A DNA stretch of 64,000 nucleotides from an uncultured Prolixibacteraceae bacterium. GTDB lineage: Bacteria > Bacteroidota > Bacteroidia > Bacteroidales > FEN-979. Below, in pieces: positions 18,586-58,968 of this stretch. The notes beneath the pieces were generated by a model. The model ran no database searches. It saw only the letters and a list, made by a program, of their open reading frames with translations, and had not been told where the DNA came from. Both the position numbers and the translations under genes were made by a program. The stretch's first letter is position 1, and each line of letters begins with the position of its first letter. The DNA is taken from assembly GCA_964455285.1 (NCBI GenBank), contig CAYVVG010000012.1, forward strand, positions 672 through 64,671, read 5' to 3'.

Positions 18586-18620
18586 GCGATCCCCGGGCCT
18601 CATCCCCGGGGATCGCTTTT
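18586..18620 (+). terminator. Intrinsic terminator hairpin at the convergent M49/dnaE junction
   Basis: 12-bp perfect stem GCGATCCCCGGG/CCCGGGGATCGC followed by TTTT. It overlaps the dnaE stop codon. Confidence 0.7.
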
Positions 18621-21600
18621 TAACGGCATCTTGGCCATTTTATCCACTTCCAGGCTGGGAAACCCGAATTCCTCCACAATTTTACCCCCCACGAGGTAGA
18701 TCCCGTCGCCCCGGAATGGATAAGCAGTCACCGTTTTCGGAAAGTGCACCGTATCGAAGAAACGCCCGTTCACATCGATGAAAGTCCCGAAGTGCATCCA
18801 CTCTTTCCTCACGGTACGCACATACTTGATCGTGACCAGCAAACCCAGCATGCGCACCTTCTTCCCGATGTGATCACTCATCTCATGGGCCAGAATATCG
18901 CCCCGGAACTTCGTTTCGAGAAGTTCAAAATAGGAATGGGTGACCGGGAAACCTAGCAGTTCGATCTCATCGTACACGTCGGCGAGAAGGTTTTGCTCCA
19001 GCACAGGCAGTTCGAACCTTTTGGCGGGGGGGGCGGGGAAAAGTGACGCGTGACGGGTGACGCTCGTCCGCTCGTCCGCTCGTCCGCTCGTCCGCTTGTC
19101 CGCTCGTCCGCTCGTCCGCTTGTCCGCTTGTCCGCTCGTCCGCTCGCCCGCTCGCCCGCTTGTCCGCTCGCCCGCCCCGACCAGCATATGCGCTTCCCAG
19201 AGCAGCACGGCCTTAGGTTTCCCGGTGAAACGGAACGCCCCGACCCTGATTAGAATGATCAGCTGATCCAGCGTAACGGGCACCCTGCTTACGAAATCCT
19301 CCAGGTCCTTATACAATTTTTCCTTCCTTCCATTCCGATCGTCGATCGTACATCGCAGATCGCAGATCGCCCTTCCCACCTCCGCTTCCAGGTTGTTCAC
19401 ATGGATAAACCCCAGGAAGATATCGGTTCCCCGGATGGAGGTCTTGTATTCGCTCCGGTTCACACAGGGTGCATGCAGCCGGCCCCCCGACACCCGGGCC
19501 TCGTTGAAGTACACCCAGGAAGCATAGAAGCCCCCGAAATTATTGATCACACCGGTGATGAACTCCAGGGGGAAATGGGCCTTGAGGTAGAGGCTCTGGT
19601 AGCTTTCGACGGCGTAGGAGGCGGAATGAGCCTTGGAGAAGGAGTATCCGGCGAACGATTCGATCTGCCTCCACACTTCGCGGGTCACCTCTTCGGGGTA
19701 GCCGAACTCGCGGCAGTTCGCGAAGAACTTGTCGATGATGCGCTGCAACTCTTTTTTCGAACGGTATTTACCGCTCATGGCCCGCCGGATCACGTCGGCA
19801 TCGGCCAGGTCGAGGCCGGCAAAGTGGTGGCAGATCTTCAGTACATCCTCCTGGTAAACCATCACCCCGAAGGTCTCCTTCAGTTGTTCCTCCATCACGG
19901 GGTGCAGATAGGTAAAGCGGCCGGGATTGTGGAACCGCAGGATATACTCCTTCATCATGCCCGAACGCGCCACCCCCGGCCGGATGATCGAACTGGCGGC
20001 CACCAGGGTGCGGTAGTTGTCGCACTGCAGCTTTTTCAGCAGGCCGCGCATGGCCGGGCTTTCGACATAAAAGCAGCCGATGGTGCGGGCGCTCCGCAAC
20101 TGTTCTTTAACCTGCTCATCCTCCTTGAACGCCCGCACACGGTGCACGTCGATCGCAATGCCCCGGTTTTTCCTGACCAGCTCGGCTGCTTCATAGATGT
20201 GTCCGATCCCCCGCTGACTGAGGATGTCGAGCTTCTCGAAGCCGATGTCCTCGGCAGTGTACATGTCGAACTGCGTGGTGGGGAATCCCTTGGGGGGCAG
20301 GTCCAGCGCCGTGTAGCAGGTGACGGGCTCTTCGGAGATCAGCACCCCGCCGGCATGGATGCTGCGCAGGTTGGGAAAGTCCGCCATCCTCTCCCCGAGT
20401 TCGCTGATCTTCCGGATGATGTGGTTCTTATGAATGGCCTCATCCGGCGACTTCAGGAAGGAATCGATCTCTCCCTTGGGGAGCCCGTGCACCTTCCCCA
20501 GCTCGCGGTAGATCGACTTGTCGCGGAAGGTCGACATGGCGCCGAGCAGGGCCGTATGCCGCCGCCCGTACCGTTTAAAGATGTAGTCGATCACCTCGTC
20601 GCGCTCTTTCCACGAATAGTCGATGTCGAAATCGGGCGGCGAAGTGCGTTTGGGGTTGATGAAACGCTCGAAGTAAAGGTCGAGCTCGATGGGATCCACA
20701 TCGGTGATCCTCAGGCAGTAGGCCACAATGCTGTTGGCCCCGCTTCCCCGGCCGACATGGTAGAATCCTCTCGACATCGAGTAGCGGATGATGTCCCACG
20801 TGATCAGGAAATAGGCGGCAAAACCCATCCGGTCGATGATATCGAGTTCGTGCCTGACCCGGCTGAGGGCCCCGGCATTCCCGTCGCCATAGCGGTAGAT
20901 CAGTCCGTCCATGGCCAGCTTGCCGAGCAGGACACGGTCGTCGTAAGGGTCACCGGTAAAGGTCTTCCGGTTCTTGCAGCTTTTAAAATCGAAACCGATG
21001 GAGCAGGCCTCCGCCAAACGTTCGGTATTCGACACGATCTCAGGAAATTCACGGGTGGCTCTCCGCCAGTCCTCCGCCGGGTGCATCACCTCGTCGGGCG
21101 AGGCCACCTGGCCGGGGATCAACCGGCTCAGCAACATGTTATGGGCCACCGCCCTGAAATTACGGTGAAGCTCGTAATCCTGCATGGTCCGGAAGGTGAC
21201 CGGCGCCATGATCACCATCCGGGGGATCAGGTCGCGATACCGGGAAAGAACCAGCGGCGTGAGTTCCGAGGGAAGGAGACCGATGAAGGATTGACGATTG
21301 ACGATTGACGATTGACGATTGACGGGTTTCGCCATTTCGCCATTTCGCCATTTCGCCATTTCGCCATTTCGCAACGGGTAGATAAAAAAAACATGCTCCA
21401 ATTCGGGAGCCCGGTCGGGCAGCGGGAGACCGTTCAGGTTGTGGTGGCTCAGAAATTCGTTCAACTCCCGGAAACCCTCGTTGTTTTGCGCCAGCCCGGT
21501 GTAAAGCAGCCTGTCCTCCTGCCTGAATTCAATCCCCGCGATAGGCCTGATGCCCTTCTCCATGCATACCGATACAAACTCCATCATCCCCGTAGAGTTA

Positions 21601-21716
21601 TTGATATCGGTCAGCGCCAGCACCTTCACCCCGCTCTTCACCGCCTCGTCGGCCAGCCCCTCCACCGAAAGGGTGCCGTAACGAAGGGAGTACCAGGAGT
21701 GACAGTTGAGATACAT
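18600..21716 (-). CDS. dnaE: DNA polymerase III alpha subunit, secondary/error-prone (DnaE2-like) type, with repeat-derived insertions
   Basis: PHP domain (CHSWYS, LTDIN), GRGSGANS, catalytic PDFDID, SFSKAHSASY, C-terminal OB region. Linked to dinB and a LexA-like gene. Confidence 0.92.
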   Translation of the reverse strand: MYLNCHSWYSLRYGTLSVEGLADEAVKSGVKVLALTDINNSTGMMEFVSVCMEKGIRPIAGIEFRQEDRLLYTGLAQNNEGFRELNEFLSHHNLNGLPLPDRAPELEHVFFIYPLRNGEMAKWRNGEMAKPVNRQSSIVNRQSFIGLLPSELTPLVLSRYRDLIPRMVIMAPVTFRTMQDYELHRNFRAVAHNMLLSRLIPGQVASPDEVMHPAEDWRRATREFPEIVSNTERLAEACSIGFDFKSCKNRKTFTGDPYDDRVLLGKLAMDGLIYRYGDGNAGALSRVRHELDIIDRMGFAAYFLITWDIIRYSMSRGFYHVGRGSGANSIVAYCLRITDVDPIELDLYFERFINPKRTSPPDFDIDYSWKERDEVIDYIFKRYGRRHTALLGAMSTFRDKSIYRELGKVHGLPKGEIDSFLKSPDEAIHKNHIIRKISELGERMADFPNLRSIHAGGVLISEEPVTCYTALDLPPKGFPTTQFDMYTAEDIGFEKLDILSQRGIGHIYEAAELVRKNRGIAIDVHRVRAFKEDEQVKEQLRSARTIGCFYVESPAMRGLLKKLQCDNYRTLVAASSIIRPGVARSGMMKEYILRFHNPGRFTYLHPVMEEQLKETFGVMVYQEDVLKICHHFAGLDLADADVIRRAMSGKYRSKKELQRIIDKFFANCREFGYPEEVTREVWRQIESFAGYSFSKAHSASYAVESYQSLYLKAHFPLEFITGVINNFGGFYASWVYFNEARVSGGRLHAPCVNRSEYKTSIRGTDIFLGFIHVNNLEAEVGRAICDLRCTIDDRNGRKEKLYKDLEDFVSRVPVTLDQLIILIRVGAFRFTGKPKAVLLWEAHMLVGAGERTSGRAGERTSGQADKRTSGRADKRTSGRADERTSVTRHASLFPAPPAKRFELPVLEQNLLADVYDEIELLGFPVTHSYFELLETKFRGDILAHEMSDHIGKKVRMLGLLVTIKYVRTVRKEWMHFGTFIDVNGRFFDTVHFPKTVTAYPFRGDGIYLVGGKIVEEFGFPSLEVDKMAKMPLKSDPRG
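19043..19173. repeat. In-frame tandem repeat in dnaE: about 3x GTGACG(C/G), then 14x octamer GCT(C/T)G(T/C)CC
   Basis: Counted directly; octamers span 19062-19173. They translate as (ERTSGRAD/ADKRTSGR)n. Confidence 0.95.
19336..19370. repeat. Degenerate 5x heptamer (CGATCGT/AGATCGC) inside dnaE
   Basis: cgatcgt cgatcgt acatcgc agatcgc agatcgc, read directly. Confidence 0.6.
21289..21374. repeat. In-frame compound repeat in dnaE: 5x GATTGAC plus 5x TTTCGCCA (and one variant)
   Basis: Perfect heptamers at 21289-21323 and perfect octamers at 21327-21366. They translate as RNGEMAKWRNGEMAKPVNRQSSIVNRQS. Confidence 0.95.
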
Positions 21717-21788
21717 GGCGAGGTAGCGAAATGGTGAAATAGCGAAATGGCGAAATGGCGAAATGGCGAAATAGCGAGGTAGTGAAAA
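21717..21788. repeat. 9x octamer (A/G)G(C/T)GA(A/G)(A/G)T abutting the dnaE start codon
   Basis: ggcgaggt agcgaaat ggtgaaat agcgaaat ggcgaaat x3 agcgaggt agtgaaaa. Confidence 0.92.
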
Positions 21789-21791
21789 TTA

Positions 21792-21831
21792 TGATTAGTT
21801 TTTAGTCATATTTCGGGTTATAATATAATCA
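21792..21831. promoter_or_regulatory. Tandem putative LexA-like operators upstream of dnaE (TGATTA-N5-TAGTCA; GGGTTA-N5-TAATCA)
   Basis: Same palindrome and same 23-bp offset as the pair upstream of dinB/lexA. Confidence 0.7.
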
Positions 21832-21883
21832 TTTTTCGGATGTAAAATTCCTGCTTATATAATTATATTTGCAGGAAATCGTC

Positions 21884-23380
21884 ATGGCTGGTCTTGTGAA
21901 ACTGTTCGAGCAAAAAACTCCCCGGATCTATTTCCTGGGCGCCGTCGTATTCCTGATGACTGCCTGGTTCTCGACGGGATACAACCACTTCGACGAGCAC
22001 TTCCAGGTGATCGAATTCGCGGGGCTGAAACTCGGTCTCACCGAAGCGGCGAACCTGCCCTGGGAGTACGGCTGCATGATGCGCCCGGCGATCCAGCCGC
22101 TGGCGGTGGTGGTGCTTTACCGGGCAGCCGGACTGGCCGGCATTTCCGACCCGTTTCTGATCGCTTTCATCATCCGGCTTTTCGCAGCCCTGCTTACCTT
22201 CTGGTCGATCCACCTGGTCATCCGGTTGTATTCGCCCGGCCTGCACAATCCCTGTCTTCGCCATGTGCTGCTGCTGCTCTCCTTTTTCCTCTGGTTCATC
22301 CCGTACAATGCCGCCCGTTTCGCCTCCGAGACGATGGCCGGCCGTATCTTCCTGGTCGGCATGGCCCTCCTGTTCCTCCGGCGGGAGCAGCGGGCGGGCG
22401 ACCATCTTCTCAACGGGCTGATCCTGGGACTCGCCTTCGTGTTCCGGTATCAGGCGGGATTCATGATCGCCGGCTATTTTGCCTGGATGGCCCTGGTGCG
22501 GCGAACGGGATTCCGGAATCTCGCTTCCTTTGCAGCCGGGATCCTGCTGTCGGTTGGCGCAGGGATCGTCATCGACCGTTGGTTTTACGGCCGGTGGGTG
22601 TTTACCTCCTGGAACTACTTCGCCCAGAACCTGGTGGAAGGCAAAGCGGCCACCTTTGGAACCAGTCCCTGGTGGTACTATATCGAACAAACCTTGGTCA
22701 ACGCCTTCCCGCCGCTGAGCCTGGTCCTGGTGGCTGCCGTGTTCCTGTACTTCATCCTGTTCCCGAAAGATATCATTACCTGGACCCTGGTGCCCTTCCT
22801 GGCGGTCCATTTTCTGATCCCGCACAAAGAGATCCGTTTCCTGTTCCCGGTTATCGGGTTTCTGCCGGTCATGATCGTCCGCACACTGGATCTCCTGGCC
22901 GAAAGATACCCTTCTGCCCGGCCGGAGCGACGGCCCTTCCGGGTGTCAGCGAAAATATTCTGGTTCCTCAACACGATCATGCTGGTGATCCTTGTCTTCC
23001 GGCCGGCCGACGACGGGATCGCCCTCTTTAAAACCCTGTGGGACCGTTATGACCGGCCGGCCCGGCTCTGTTACACCGGCGACAACCCTTATCACCGGGC
23101 AAAGGTTGACGTTCACTTTTACAAGCGGAAGAGCTTGGTGCTGCAGCAGGTGGATTCGGTGAACCGGATCCGGCCCGTGAGGGACACGGTAACGCTGGTG
23201 GTAACCTCCCGGCCCCTTGTCATGACCGGCACCTCCTCCGGGGCTGAGCTGGTTTATTCCACCTACCCGGCGTGGGTCCGGCGATTCAACATCAACCACT
23301 GGCTCGACCGCACCAGTTTCTGGCATGTTTACGAGATAAAACCCGTTACTCCTTCACCCGGCAGTCATGAAACGGAATGA
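21884..23380 (+). CDS. GT-C fold glycosyltransferase, Alg9/PIG-B (GT22)-like mannosyltransferase
   Basis: HFDEHFQVIE, LPWEYG, IPHKEIRFLFP motifs, more than 10 TM helices. ATG 21884 follows TATATTTG (21864-21871). Confidence 0.8.
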   Translation: MAGLVKLFEQKTPRIYFLGAVVFLMTAWFSTGYNHFDEHFQVIEFAGLKLGLTEAANLPWEYGCMMRPAIQPLAVVVLYRAAGLAGISDPFLIAFIIRLFAALLTFWSIHLVIRLYSPGLHNPCLRHVLLLLSFFLWFIPYNAARFASETMAGRIFLVGMALLFLRREQRAGDHLLNGLILGLAFVFRYQAGFMIAGYFAWMALVRRTGFRNLASFAAGILLSVGAGIVIDRWFYGRWVFTSWNYFAQNLVEGKAATFGTSPWWYYIEQTLVNAFPPLSLVLVAAVFLYFILFPKDIITWTLVPFLAVHFLIPHKEIRFLFPVIGFLPVMIVRTLDLLAERYPSARPERRPFRVSAKIFWFLNTIMLVILVFRPADDGIALFKTLWDRYDRPARLCYTGDNPYHRAKVDVHFYKRKSLVLQQVDSVNRIRPVRDTVTLVVTSRPLVMTGTSSGAELVYSTYPAWVRRFNINHWLDRTSFWHVYEIKPVTPSPGSHETE

Positions 23381-24551
23381 GTACTTCAACGGTTTCACCC
23401 TGTTCGTTGCGCTGGCATGCCTGCTCAACCTGGTGATGAACCTGATCAACCACCGCTTTCACCCGGGCGATTTCCAGGTATATTACAGCGCGGCGGAACA
23501 GCTTGTGTCGGGAGATCCTGTATATATGGTATCCTTTTACACCGGCAGCGGGTATTACAAATACAGTCCCGTCATCCTCCTGTTCTTTCTGCCTTATCTT
23601 CCCTTCCCGCTGTTCACTGCCTCCGTTCTCCATTTCCTGGTGCAGAGTGTTGCCTTCTATCTGACTTTCCGGGTGATCCGCCGGATCCTTCAGGACTTTT
23701 TCTCCTATCCCGCAGGGGGTCGGGGGAACCTGCTGCTGACACTTTCCTTCGCGGGCATCCTGATACACCTCACGCGGGAACTGTACGTGGGCAACATCAA
23801 CATCCTGCTGCTGCTTCTCACGTTGCTTTCACTGCAGATGTTCCTTGAGGGGAGAGAGAGGCCTGGCGGCATCCTTGCCGGCATTGCCCTCCTGGCCAAA
23901 CCCTACCTGGCGATCCTGCTGCTGCCTATGGTGATGCGGGGAAGGTGGAAAGCGACCGGATGGGCGGCTGCGACCGTCCTGGCCGGGTTGCTTCTGCCCT
24001 TCCTCTACCCGGGCCCTGTGAGGGCGGCCGAACTGTACTCGGGCTGGTACCGAACACTCACCATGCACGCAGGAGGATTCCCCGGCATGACCTCGGTCGA
24101 CTACCTGGCCGCGCGGTACATCGCCGGATGGCCCTCCTATGGCAATCTGCTGATATTCTTGCTGCTCATGGCGTTGGCCGTGGTTTTCATCCGCGGCAAC
24201 ATCCGGATTGAAAGAACGGACGTCAACCCGGACCGGGCCAACGCAAATGCCGCCTTCGAATGGTTTCTGCTGGCTGCACTGATCCCCAACCTGATCAAAA
24301 CCGACTGGGTATTGCTGTTGTTCAGCGCCCCGCTGATCGCCTTCATGGTGTTCACGGTCGCCGCCCGGAAAAGCTACGGCTGGATCCCGGTGCTGGTGGT
24401 CCTCCTCTTCTTTTATGGCGCCAATTCCGACGACCTTCTCGGGCGGGAGCTTTCGCGGAAGATCCTCCATTCGGGGCTGATGGGACTCGCCAATTTCCTC
24501 CTGGTGATCGTGGCGGCGGTCATGTACCGGACCGTCAGAATAAGATCGTAG
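23367..24551 (+). CDS. GT87/DUF2029 family membrane glycosyltransferase
   Basis: GDFQVYYSAA...L..G..VY, YKYSPV, GNINILL, ALLAKPY motifs; polytopic. Overlaps the upstream gene. Confidence 0.8.
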   Translation: MKRNEYFNGFTLFVALACLLNLVMNLINHRFHPGDFQVYYSAAEQLVSGDPVYMVSFYTGSGYYKYSPVILLFFLPYLPFPLFTASVLHFLVQSVAFYLTFRVIRRILQDFFSYPAGGRGNLLLTLSFAGILIHLTRELYVGNINILLLLLTLLSLQMFLEGRERPGGILAGIALLAKPYLAILLLPMVMRGRWKATGWAAATVLAGLLLPFLYPGPVRAAELYSGWYRTLTMHAGGFPGMTSVDYLAARYIAGWPSYGNLLIFLLLMALAVVFIRGNIRIERTDVNPDRANANAAFEWFLLAALIPNLIKTDWVLLLFSAPLIAFMVFTVAARKSYGWIPVLVVLLFFYGANSDDLLGRELSRKILHSGLMGLANFLLVIVAAVMYRTVRIRS

Positions 24552-24557
24552 TTGCCG

Positions 24558-24579
24558 CCCGTCACCCGTCACCCCTTCA
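24558..24579. repeat. Short GTGACGG-family repeat at the dinB stop codon
   Basis: cccgtca cccgtca ccccttca. The TGA of dinB lies inside the repeat. Confidence 0.6.
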
Positions 24580-25720
24580 CCCCCACCCCTCTCATCACCA
24601 CCTTCTGCCCGTACTTTCGCCGGATCCGGTCGAGGGCCTGGTAGAGGTTCACCATTCCGGCATTGTCGTCGAACAGGTTGAGTTGCGGGTTGCCGGAGAT
24701 GAGGTTGCTGAAGCGCACCCCGATGAGCCGGATCAGCATGCGCCGCTGGTAGAGCCGGTCGAAGAGGCTTTTCACCAGGGGGATGAGCTCATGGTCGAAG
24801 GCGGTATAGGGAACGCGCTGCTGCAGGGTGTGGGTGTCGAAGTTTGAGTAGCGGATCTTGACCGTGACGCAGGAGGTAAGTTTCTGTTTGTCGCGCAGTT
24901 CGAAAGATATCTTCTCAACCATCTTCACCAGGATCTCCTTCATCCGGACGATGTCGATGCTGTCCTGCTCGAAGGTATTTTCGGTACTGACCGATTTGGC
25001 TTCGTGCCAGGGGTAGACGGGGGTGGGGTCGATGCCGTTGGCCTTTTCCCAGATCACGATGCCGTTTTTCCCCATCACCCGTTCCATCATGTCGGGCGGG
25101 ATGCGGCGGAGGGTGTCGATGGTCACCACCCCCATCGAGCGCAGGAGCCGGTAGGTCTTCTCCCCGATCATGGGTATCTTGCGGATCGACAGGGGGGCCA
25201 GGAAGGGATCCACCGCCCCGCGCTCCACGTACAGTTCACCGTTGGGCTTGGCTTCGCCCGTGGCGATCTTCGACACCGTTTTATTCACGGAGAGTCCGAA
25301 AGAGATGGGCAACCCGGTGTTGCGGATGATCGCCTCCCGCAGTTCATGGGTCCATTGCCGGATCCCGAAGAAGCGGTCCATGCCGGTGATGTCGATATAG
25401 TGCTCGTCGATGGAGGCTTTCTCATAGAGAGGCGCCTTTTCGGCGATGATCTCCGTAACGGTGTCGGAGTATTTCGAGTAGAGCTCCATGTCGCCCCGCA
25501 CCAGGATGGCGTCGCCGCAGAGGGCGCGTGCCATCTTCACCGGCATGGCCGAGTGGACGCCGAACTTCCGCGCCTCGTAGCTGCAGCTGGCCACCACTCC
25601 CCGGTCGGAGGTGCCGCCGATGATCACCGGCTTGCCGACCAGTTCGGGGCGGAGCAGGCGTTCGACCGAAACGAAGAAGGTGTCGAGGTCGAGGTGAACG
25701 ATATTTCGGGAGGAGGACAC
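24569..25720 (-). CDS. dinB: DNA polymerase IV (Y family)
   Basis: HLDLDTFFVSVE, SCSYEARKFGV, SIDEHYID, SVNKTVSKIA, KIRYSNF. GTG start. Confidence 0.95.
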   Translation of the reverse strand: MSSSRNIVHLDLDTFFVSVERLLRPELVGKPVIIGGTSDRGVVASCSYEARKFGVHSAMPVKMARALCGDAILVRGDMELYSKYSDTVTEIIAEKAPLYEKASIDEHYIDITGMDRFFGIRQWTHELREAIIRNTGLPISFGLSVNKTVSKIATGEAKPNGELYVERGAVDPFLAPLSIRKIPMIGEKTYRLLRSMGVVTIDTLRRIPPDMMERVMGKNGIVIWEKANGIDPTPVYPWHEAKSVSTENTFEQDSIDIVRMKEILVKMVEKISFELRDKQKLTSCVTVKIRYSNFDTHTLQQRVPYTAFDHELIPLVKSLFDRLYQRRMLIRLIGVRFSNLISGNPQLNLFDDNAGMVNLYQALDRIRRKYGQKVVMRGVGVKG

Positions 25721-25752
25721 AAATAGTGAAATAGCGAAATAGTGAAATGGTG
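25721..25752. repeat. 4x octamer AAAT(A/G)G(T/C)G abutting the dinB start codon
   Basis: aaatagtg aaatagcg aaatagtg aaatggtg. Same family and same position as the tract before dnaE. Confidence 0.85.
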
Positions 25753-25756
25753 AATT

Positions 25757-25796
25757 TGATTATTTTTTAATCATTTTGCCGATTACAATATAATCA
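25757..25796. promoter_or_regulatory. Tandem putative LexA-like operators between divergent dinB and lexA-like genes (TGATTA-N5-TAATCA; CGATTA-N5-TAATCA)
   Basis: Perfect palindrome at 25757-25773 and a 1-mismatch copy at 25780-25796, directly upstream of TATATTTG (25798-25805). Confidence 0.8.
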
Positions 25797-28991: not shown

Positions 28992-29875
28992 CCGAAACGA
29001 ATAGTCGCCGGGTAATCCTCGTAGCGGGTGCCGACGGACAGCTCGGGAACGAACTGAGGGTGCTCGCACCGATGCATCCGGGAATGGAGTTTCATTTCAC
29101 GGATGTCGGAGAACTGGATATCACCAGCGAGACGGCCGTCATGGCCATGACCGGTCGGCTCCGGCCATCGGTGATCATTAACTGCGCTGCCTATACTGCC
29201 GTCGACAAAGCCGAACAGGACGAGGAGAGAGCCACCCTGCTCAATGGCACTGCCCCCGGCATCCTGGCACGCGCGGCCGGTATGACAGGGGCGCTGCTGA
29301 TCCATGTCTCGACCGACTACGTGTTCGACGGCCGGGCCTGCACTCCCTATGCGGAAGATCACCCGGTTGCCCCGGCATCGGCTTACGGGCGCAGCAAGCT
29401 GATCGGCGAACAGCAGGTCAGGGTCCACGCCAGCCAGGCCATCATCCTTCGCACCTCCTGGCTCTATTCGTCGTTCGGACACAATTTCGTCAGGACGATG
29501 ATGAAGTATGGCAGAGAAAGGGGAAGTTTGCGGGTGGTGTTCGACCAGGCGGGCTCCCCGACCTATGCCCGCGACCTTGCTTCCGCCATCCTGCAAATCG
29601 TCGAATCCGGCCGGCCCGTCGAGGGTACGGAGGTTTTCCATTATGCCAATGAAGGCGTGGCAAGCTGGTATGATTTTGCCCTTGCCATCCTGGAGACAGG
29701 TGAGATCCCATGCATCGTGACCCCCATCCTCACCCGAGATTATCCCCTTCCCGCCGCAAGGCCGGCGTACAGCGTATTCGACAAAGCAAAGATCAAGGAG
29801 CGTTTCGGGATCCAAATACCCTACTGGAGAGATAGTTTGAAGGATTGTATGCGGGTGATAGGGGAAGAGCGATGA
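28988..29875 (+). CDS. rfbD: dTDP-4-dehydrorhamnose reductase
   Basis: [39 protein letters not shown]. Confidence 0.93.
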
Positions 29876-29938
29876 GATTGAAGATTGAAGATTGAAGATT
29901 GAAGATTGAAGATTGAAGATTGAAGATTGAAGAATTGA
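29875..29938. repeat. 8x perfect heptamer AGATTGA (plus one variant) between rfbD and pgm
   Basis: Counted directly at 29875-29930; begins at the last base of the rfbD stop codon. Confidence 0.95.
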
Positions 29939-56617: not shown

Positions 56618-57481
56618 ATGAGGCAGCTTAAAATTACCAAGCAGGTTACCAACCGTGAAACTGCATCGCTCGACAAGTACCTGCAGGAGATCGGGAAAGT
56701 GGAACTGATCACCGCCGACGAAGAGGTGTCGCTCGCCCAGAGGATCAAACAGGGCGATATGGCAGCCCTGGAAAAGCTTACCAAGGCCAACCTCCGCTTC
56801 GTCGTTTCGGTATCCAAGCAGTACCAGAACCAGGGCCTGAGCCTCCCCGACCTGATCAACGAAGGAAACCTCGGACTGATCAAAGCAGCCCAGCGTTTCG
56901 ACGAAACACGCGGGTTTAAATTCATCTCCTATGCCGTTTGGTGGATCCGCCAGTCGATTCTCCAGGCGCTGGCCGAACAATCGCGCATCGTACGTCTTCC
57001 GCTGAACAAGATCGGCTCGATCAACAAGATCAACAAAGCCTACGCCCAACTGGAACAGAAATACGAACGGGAACCCAACGCGGGAGAGATTGCATTCCTG
57101 CTGGAAGTATCTGAAAACGAGGTTAAAGAGTCGATGCGCAACTCGGGAAGGCATGTCTCCATGGATGCCCCCCTGGTCCAGGACGAGGACAACACCATGT
57201 ACGACGTCCTTCGCAGCGAAGAGAACACCACCCCCGACAACGGCCTGCTGTACGAGTCACTTAAAAAAGAGATTGAACGAGCCGTTTCCACGCTCACACA
57301 GCGGGAAGCCGACGTAGTTCGCCTGTACTTCGGGCTGAATGGAAGTCATCCCATGACCCTCGAAGAAATTGGCGAAAAGTTTGACCTCACCCGCGAACGG
57401 GTCCGGCAGATCAAGGAAAAAGCCATCCGGCGGCTCAAGCACACGTCAAGGAGCAAGATTCTGAAGACTTATCTGGGGTGA
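56618..57481 (+). CDS. rpoD: Primary RNA polymerase sigma factor, RpoD/SigA family (short Bacteroidota type)
   Basis: [57 protein letters not shown]. No region 1.1. Confidence 0.95.
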
Positions 57482-57533
57482 CGGCGTGACGGTGTGACGA
57501 CGTGACAGCGTGACGGCGTGACGGCGTGACGAA
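57478..57533. repeat. 7x octamer GTGAC(G/A)(G/A)(C/T) starting at the rpoD stop codon
   Basis: gtgacggc gtgacggt gtgacgac gtgacagc gtgacggc gtgacggc gtgacgaa. Confidence 0.92.
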
Positions 57534-58865: not shown

Positions 58866-58880
58866 CGGGCCGGAGTAAAA

Positions 58881-58968
58881 GCGGACTAGCGGACTAGCGG
58901 ACAAGCGGACTAGCGGACTAGCGGACAAGCGGACTAGCGGACTAGCGGACAAGCGGACTAGCGGACAG
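58881..58968. repeat. 11x octamer GCGGAC(T/A)A with 24-bp higher-order period
   Basis: Unit endings run (TA,TA,AA)x3, then TA, AG. Counted directly. Confidence 0.95.

Follow-up and report, generated by a model that had tools for sequence, protein, structure and literature searches.

The DNA analysed here, hereafter the window, is a 64,000-nt stretch from an uncultured Prolixibacteraceae bacterium of the order Bacteroidales (positions 672 to 64,671 of contig CAYVVG010000012.1, assembly GCA_964455285.1), and the gene in question (18600..21716, minus strand) encodes a short paralogue of the α subunit of DNA polymerase III (Pol III), which is DnaE2-like and belongs to a type usually associated with DinB. 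The gene starts with ATG, encodes 1038 residues in an intact frame, and carries tandem arrays of 7- and 8-nt units inside its coding sequence, with a further array in its 5′ leader. Slipped-strand frameshifting occurs at the homologous tracts in sister species, where intact alleles dominate. With about even confidence, we take the arrays to be passengers from dispersed repeat families that an SOS polymerase, dispensable yet under selection, tolerates in its permissive loops, so that contingency-like behaviour would be a by-product.

Two arrays lie side by side in the 5′ part of the gene. Tandem Repeats Finder, run on the window, identified an array of period 7 at 21289-21324 (unit GATTGAC, 5.1 copies, 100% matches) and an array of period 8 at 21327-21372 (unit TTTCGCCA, 5.8 copies, that is 5.75 units, 100% matches), which are separated by a 2-nt GG spacer. 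Because the total of 36 + 2 + 46 = 84 nt amounts to 28 codons, the frame stays open across both tracts, and codons 115-143 are translated as RNGEMAKWRNGEMAKPVNRQSSIVNRQS. In the sense orientation of the minus strand, the octamer array reads (TGGCGAAA)x5.75 and gives the peptide RNGEMAKWRNGEMAK (codons 115-130), and the heptamer array reads (GTCAATC)x5.1 and gives PVNRQSSIVNRQS (codons 131-143). The octamer array and the leader array are reverse complements of each other, and the GATTGAC/GTCAATC heptamer is stop-free in every frame only in its in-gene orientation. A previous reading of the letters and open reading frames (ORFs) alone, here called the sequence-only reading, had described five perfect copies of each unit; the repeats are indeed perfect, and the octamer count is corrected to 5.75 units. 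Its placement of the tracts at codons 115-143 of an intact frame agrees with the ORF 18600..21716, which is open and aligns with orthologs over residues 1-1038. Chance does not explain the tracts, since the doubled octamer pattern has 18 matches in the window and the doubled heptamer pattern 12, compared to 0.31 and 0.68 expected from shuffles.

The same inventory, correct for these two tracts, had overlooked three more arrays in the gene and the one in its leader, all found by Tandem Repeats Finder and all on the minus strand. The largest in-gene array (19061..19175, sense (RAGCGGAC)x14.4, codons 848-886) fills the linker after the HHH_6 domain and is directly followed by a heptamer array (19043..19063, (CGTCACS)x3, codons ~885-892). 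Another heptamer array (19344..19370, (TGCGATC)x3.9, codons 783-791) occupies a third variable site, at which a sister species carries frameshifting PASRIPH arrays. The leader octamer array (21715..21777, sense (TTTCRCYA)x7.9) reaches the ATG at 21716. Four array families are common to the polymerase gene and the leaders of dinB, the phosphoglucomutase gene (pgm), rpe and the universal-stress-protein gene (usp). The in-gene RAGCGGAC matches the usp leader unit AGCGGACW, and GTCAATC and CGTCACS are the reverse complements of the leader units of pgm (AGATTGA) and rpe (GTGACGGC), respectively. The TTTCRCYA octamer family is confined within the window to the in-gene site, the polymerase leader and the dinB leader. 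The leader arrays of the window include AGATTGA x9 before pgm, GTGACGGC x6.8 before rpe and AGCGGACT x10.9 before usp, and those at 21715-77, 25721-54 and 29875-938 end a few nucleotides from a start codon. In-gene copies of the shared families are stop-free variants or orientations only. The two tracts belong to a wider family of 7/8-nt arrays that is scattered over the genome.

The load of this gene was compared with that of surrounding DNA. Across 25 clade loci the polymerase gene holds 50 arrays (0.66/kb), against three in 112 kb of other long ORFs (0.027/kb) and 1.08/kb in intergenic DNA. Among 138 baseline loci the gene holds none, with 0.020/kb in other long ORFs and 0.68/kb in intergenic DNA, and 31 arrays lie at most 100 nt upstream of the polymerase gene start. 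The in-gene density in the clade is ~24-fold above that of neighbouring ORFs, and in the number of arrays that it carries the polymerase gene clearly stands apart. In three baseline loci, L009 (3200-4000), L017 (3869-3974) and L060 (3935-3997), arrays of units such as AGACTGA and GACTGAA, similar to the TAACTGA repeats of PMC4679880, stand a short way 5′ of the polymerase start codon.

Comparison of orthologs locates the first insert in a variable part of the protein. The homologs, which are 65-81% identical and 984-1160 residues long, all come from metagenome-assembled genomes or metagenomes of uncultured Bacteroidales. In the alignment, each of 82 orthologs has a repeat-derived low-complexity peptide (site 1), flanked by the conserved IYPF and IGIRPSDLNPL, that differs in sequence and length; recurring motifs are NSEIAKWRNG, VNRQSSIVNRQS, HASRVTRHD, HHFTISP and SLPRYLATSL. 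Baseline Bacteroidales orthologs (~60% identity, ~977 residues) have a 9-residue loop at site 1 and a 36-residue linker where the window gene has its 14-unit array. Two further lineages carry unrelated low-complexity inserts in the same site-1 loop. In an AlphaFold2 model, residues 118-140 have a predicted local distance difference test score (pLDDT) below 50 and lie between two confident strands of the PHP barrel (109-114 and 143-147); the whole-protein model is poor (mean pLDDT 54.6, predicted template modelling score 0.38), and only these locally confident strands were used. A phmmer search against the PDB aligned residues 2-92 and 171-240 with the E. coli α subunit, which leaves the insert in the unaligned middle of the PHP domain and gives no exact structural position for it. 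By the ortholog alignment and the predicted model, site 1 is a permissive, variable loop; the sequence-only reading had proposed an alignment with DnaE2 orthologs to confirm that the insertion is in a surface loop. At L085/L086 and L095, site 1 holds, in place of tandem arrays, GC-rich perfect palindromes (CCCCCTCTCCTtcAGGAGAGGGGG and AGTCCTTCCCCgaaGGGGAGAGGACT) that are translated in frame.

Turnover of the arrays is seen across the clade, and within species-level clusters it extends to null alleles. In clusters of at least 90% identity, full-length alleles differ by 7, 8, 14 or 16 residues at the array sites, equivalent to three or six units. At the DNA level, two loci of cluster 3 that are ~99% identical and share the same synteny carry an intact gene of 1110 residues (L166) and a gene split into ORFs of 153 and 943 residues (L164). 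The split allele lacks one 7-nt unit of the in-gene array at the homologous site; its leader array is also shorter by one 7-nt unit, as an independent change. Loss of a unit breaks the gene in this sister species, as had been predicted for the window gene, and the tract is neither invariant nor altered in multiples of 3 bp only. The gene is split on several contigs of cluster 3; four of the 15 listed members of cluster 2 leave the frame inside the PASRIPH heptamer array, and one allele of cluster 7 is frameshifted within an array. In-frame and frameshifted alleles, the comparison that the sequence-only reading had proposed among strains, are both found in clusters 2, 3 and 7 of sister species; the window allele is ON. 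Two further nulls in the cluster 3 species are nonsense substitutions within a 74-nt tract (GCGAAAA to GCGTAAA and GCGAAAT to GCTAAAT). Both changes, in L167 and L169, are to T, and the 74-nt site-1 tract that holds them is hairpin-forming and also carries the unit-loss frameshift. The clustering of nulls there could mean that the tract is a mutational hot spot, or that loss of function has been selected repeatedly. As a very rough estimate from contig counts of the listed members, null alleles make up ~10-13% of cluster 3, ~20% of cluster 2 and ~4% of cluster 1.

Several candidate frameshifts were set aside. P0047 and P0113, which give no PHP hit, are not array-related: the former starts ~70 residues into the protein on a 3-kb contig, and the latter lacks ~45 N-terminal residues. 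Among the N-terminal fragments P0209-P0211, two result from nonsense substitutions within the array and one from a contig end, so that none is a frameshift. P0114 and P0092 are no simple frameshifts either: in both, the array marks the precise point at which the gene gives way, on its upstream side, to unrelated DNA. In sample ERZ27313539, L081 (1-1100) joins the N-terminal 149 residues and a (TCGTCAA)n array to a radical-SAM/BioB-like gene, and L083 (3500-4200) joins an LptF/G-like gene and the array to the C-terminal 882 residues of the polymerase; the two junctions look like reciprocal exchange between arrays at two loci, or chimeric assembly. In P0092 (L082), a DUF218 gene is fused in frame at the same array point.

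The pattern of unit changes indicates selection on the reading frame. Leader arrays, which are free of a frame constraint, vary by single units, being 59 or 52 nt whatever the in-gene allele, whereas arrays within the ORF vary mostly by three, which argues for selection for the frame. Frameshifted alleles were also sought among 80 genome and 80 metagenome loci, about 23 of them from the repeat-bearing clade; every full-length hit keeps one frame, the 21 of the clade included, in a sample of best matches that is biased to intact genes. These observations point to purifying selection for the ON state rather than to balanced switching. Of the proposed phase-variable mutator, the frameshifting by unit number is supported, as seen in sister species, and balanced switching is not supported, with ON predominant and 21/21 clade loci in one frame.

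On the reading that the arrays are tolerated passengers, 7/8-nt families dispersed through the genome, and normally resident in intergenic leaders, would have colonised four permissive sites of the gene in one Bacteroidales sub-clade, namely a PHP-barrel loop flanked by two strands, a further pair of variable sites and the inter-domain linker, and would have formed the 5′ leader as well. Survivors would be those with stop-free units or orientations and a total length divisible by three, with the polymerase under purifying selection. Ongoing slipped-strand mispairing would then mutate the arrays: changes of one or two units would shift the frame and yield null alleles that persist for a while, and changes of three units would give harmless length variants. 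The outcome would resemble a contingency locus, with local hypermutation and natural ON and OFF alleles, and would be a tolerated by-product more than a designed mutator switch. The OFF alleles would be mostly mildly deleterious or neutral, and the same array dynamics probably operate in the window's organism.

Several observations sit uneasily with this reading. The ~24-fold enrichment and the persistence of arrays at the same sites across 20-30% protein divergence exceed simple tolerance, and other dispensable genes nearby are without arrays. Three independent nulls in one sister species all fall in the 74-nt site-1 tract of a 3.3-kb gene, which could mean selection for loss of function. By estimate, 4-20% of contigs have a null as their assembled, and hence majority, sequence, a large share if such alleles were purely deleterious. 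In addition, the population comparisons come from sister species only, the window organism's protein cluster having a single member.

Part of this evidence would be expected of an evolved contingency locus, in which the arrays are kept because stochastic, reversible ON/OFF switching of a damage-inducible polymerase is advantageous, dividing the population into cells with and without error-prone synthesis. We regard this explanation as possible but doubtful. Simple-sequence contingency loci phase-vary by slipped-strand mispairing, Moxon's 'localized hypermutation', at tetra- and pentanucleotide tracts in genes of Haemophilus and Neisseria. Like them, the polymerase gene contains tandem units not divisible by three within an ORF (7-nt x5.1 and 8-nt x5.8), the tracts being perfect and multi-unit, so that a unit change shifts the frame, and ON and OFF alleles coexist in sister-species populations. 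A frameshift by unit loss is found at the homologous site of a sister species and others in the arrays of clusters 2 and 7; OFF alleles are the assembled sequence in ~4-20% of contigs of three species-level clusters; independent nulls cluster within the tract; and the arrays, ~24-fold enriched in this gene, are retained across the whole sub-clade. However, ON alleles are in large majority, and the three-unit steps within the ORF against one-unit steps in the leader imply that frameshifts are purged. In the best-sampled species, two nulls out of three arose by nonsense substitution, a change that does not easily revert, and five to six units of 7-8 nt make a modest tract. The gene also departs from known contingency loci in its host, a free-living uncultured Bacteroidales rather than a host-adapted pathogen; in its target, a DNA polymerase rather than a surface or restriction-modification gene; and in its layout, with 7- and 8-nt arrays over four sites and a leader, and ON strongly predominant. 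A literature search turned up neither arrays of this kind within a polymerase gene nor a phase-variable dnaE2, leaving this explanation without precedent there, and the review PMC11868660 includes no phase-variable polymerase of this sort.

Two of the remaining explanations involve the complementarity between the leader and the insert. The in-gene octamers form with leader positions 21723-21771 a 49-nt inverted repeat, which is 94% complementary with the arms 347 nt apart. In the predicted mRNA fold, distant segments close a helix of 46 bp whose end lies 7 nt ahead of the AUG (minimum free energy -206 kcal/mol, z = -4.57, none of 100 shuffles as stable), and the predicted duplex between leader and site has an energy of -82.9 kcal/mol (z = -9.7). 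Combining this with the frameshift evidence, one may imagine a two-layer stochastic switch, in which arrays in four loops toggle the frame reversibly and a leader/in-gene RNA helix, tunable by repeat number, sets the level of translation; such a combination appears unlikely. A little less likely again is a purely cis-acting structure, in which the in-gene octamers act as an anti-leader that masks the region where translation starts or offers double-stranded RNA to an RNase, throttling expression of a mutagenic enzyme with a strength set by unit number; a variant at the DNA level would be recombination or inversion between the inverted arrays. Besides the inverted repeat and the predicted helix near the AUG, such a structure could account for the confinement of the octamer family in the window to both polymerase leaders and the in-gene site. 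Complementarity recurs in relatives (L001, L088, L093 and L099), local site-1 hairpins (z <= -2) occur in ~10 of 21 clade loci, some of them in GC palindromes that are not arrays, and in L094 and L088 the leader and the site show matching changes in their unit variants. In L099 a 33-nt near-perfect match has its unit variants in the same order, and in many orthologs the insert is palindromic, with (TGGCGAAA)-type units in the left arm and complementary ones in the right, whereas the window's own insert is not. Against this, the leader-site duplex is significant in just five of the 21 clade loci and hairpins are found in about half; arrays present in both orientations pair automatically, and concerted evolution of the repeat family explains the co-variation. 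Translating ribosomes would moreover melt the helix, none of the examined loci has an inverted allele, and an Rfam search returned no relevant match. A role of the repeat peptides themselves, for example in spacing parts of the PHP domain and linker flexibly or in mediating interactions there, would fit the presence of some site-1 insert in every clade ortholog and in unrelated lineages, but is very improbable, because peptide sequence, length and unit reading frame differ freely between close species, the segment is unstructured in the model (pLDDT <50) and baseline orthologs manage without it.

In the encoded polymerase, Pfam assigns the domains PHP (3-96), DNA_pol3_alpha (264-499), finger (507-670) and HHH_6 (746-836), an architecture of the C family (Pol III α) that is shorter than replicative DnaE, ~977 residues without the inserts. 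NCBIfam places the protein in the Pol III α superfamily; it reaches no DnaE equivalog cut-off and scores 435.8 bits for NF004225 (error-prone DNA polymerase), below the cut-off of 939. The first PHP motif (codons 1-6, 21716-21700) reads LNCHS in place of the usual H-x-H, and we presume that the PHP domain may lack metal-binding or exonuclease function. Immediately upstream, 104 of the 136 baseline loci have a Y-family polymerase gene, dinB, the usual operon partner, as do 14 of the 21 loci from the clade. In the window, the DinB/Pol IV-type enzyme (24569..25720, minus strand, 383 residues; Pfam IMS and IMS_C) scores 280.7 for NF002677 against a cut-off of 256 and retains the catalytic DLD and SIDE motifs. 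It is separated from the polymerase gene by two plus-strand glycosyltransferase genes, at 21869-23380 (GT22/Alg9-like) and 23367-24551 (GT87).

The sequence-only reading had called the gene an error-prone polymerase of the DnaE2 type. Membership among Pol III α paralogues stands, although the curated DnaE2 cut-off is missed and the partner is DinB instead of ImuB. The imuA-imuB-dnaE2 mutasome joins dnaE2 in one operon to a catalytically dead ImuB and to ImuA; here the DinB is catalytically intact by its motifs, and no imuA was seen among the window ORFs scanned. From its domains and neighbours, the gene is best described as the Pol III α member of a dinB-polIIIalpha cassette and not as a canonical imuA-imuB-dnaE2 member. 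Null or truncated alleles are the assembled sequence in natural sister-species populations, hence the gene would be dispensable and would not be the replicative enzyme. The dinB-polIIIalpha cassette is predicted to be SOS-regulated in Bacteroidetes (Sanchez-Osuna et al., PMC8565304).

The upstream regions of the two polymerase genes of the window are similarly built. Two dyads of the GATTA-N5-TAATC type, a putative SOS-type operator pair on the minus strand, lie upstream of the leader array of the polymerase gene at 21793-21807 and 21816-21830. The dinB control region (25721..25795, minus strand) has a TTTCRCYA-family octamer leader array at 25721-25754 and perfect GATTA-N5-TAATC dyads at 25758-25772 and 25781-25795. 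Of the five such dyads in the window, four are these, and the two pairs are equally spaced. The upstream regions align at ~85% over both the dyads and the leader octamers, and hence represent a duplicated control region. A scan for sigma-70 promoters and terminators, which is ill-suited to Bacteroidetes promoters, returned nothing. As in the cassettes of PMC8565304, a Y-family gene lies directly upstream in most relatives and a dyad-N5-dyad precedes both genes; however, the dyad here is GATTA-N5-TAATC and not CTAA-N5-TTAG or GGA-N5-TCC, and the window operon is split, with a copy of the control region for each gene. By analogy with the non-canonical LexA boxes of Bacteroidetes (PMC8565304), the paired dyads are a candidate SOS operator for this lineage.

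The arrays themselves have their closest counterpart in the long simple sequence repeats (LSSRs; Mrazek 2007, as cited in PMC4679880) and the cyanobacterial short tandemly repeated repetitive sequences (STRRs). They have the defining features of these: units within the range of 5-11 nt, here 7/8 nt, in arrays beyond chance, families shared by several loci, a mostly intergenic location (0.68-1.08/kb against ~0.02/kb in ORFs) and a frequent position 5′ of start codons. In PMC4679880, TAACTGA heptamer arrays are described from Beggiatoaceae, Cyanobacteria and a few Bacteroidetes, and TAACTGA is untranslatable in the forward orientation. Unlike LSSRs and STRRs, the arrays here stand in frame within a conserved ORF at an intergenic-like density, and their units are diverse, with no one heptamer preferred, all those in the gene being stop-free. 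Rickettsia palindromic elements, which Ogata et al. are said to have described in 2000 as selfish repeats in frame within protein-coding genes, offer another comparison. In both cases an otherwise conserved enzyme gains an additional segment on its surface from translated repeat DNA, and here too the insert is palindromic in many orthologs; however, the units are very short and variable rather than a fixed element of 100-150 bp, and they are concentrated in one gene, not spread over many. The fixed sequence, fixed length and palindromy of such elements are not found together here, palindromy being present in about half of the orthologs and absent from the window insert.

To our knowledge, nearly all cases of simple-repeat phase variation concern surface, restriction-modification or metabolic genes in host-adapted bacteria. 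In the environmental Bacteroidales studied here, a conserved DNA-damage polymerase is the sole gene of its neighbourhood loaded with slippery non-triplet arrays. If switching were adaptive, the supply of mutations would be a heritable, bet-hedged trait, and the concept of contingency loci would come to include the mutagenesis machinery as well as free-living bacteria. Were the arrays only tolerated, they would still provide a natural system for the spread of 7/8-nt arrays, their selective filtering by frame and stop codons, and the mutational load per functional gene.

The remaining 7/8-nt arrays of the window, at 24558-24602, 25721-25754, 29875-29938, 57478-57531 and 58880-58966, are intergenic and mostly span the interval between a stop codon and the next start.

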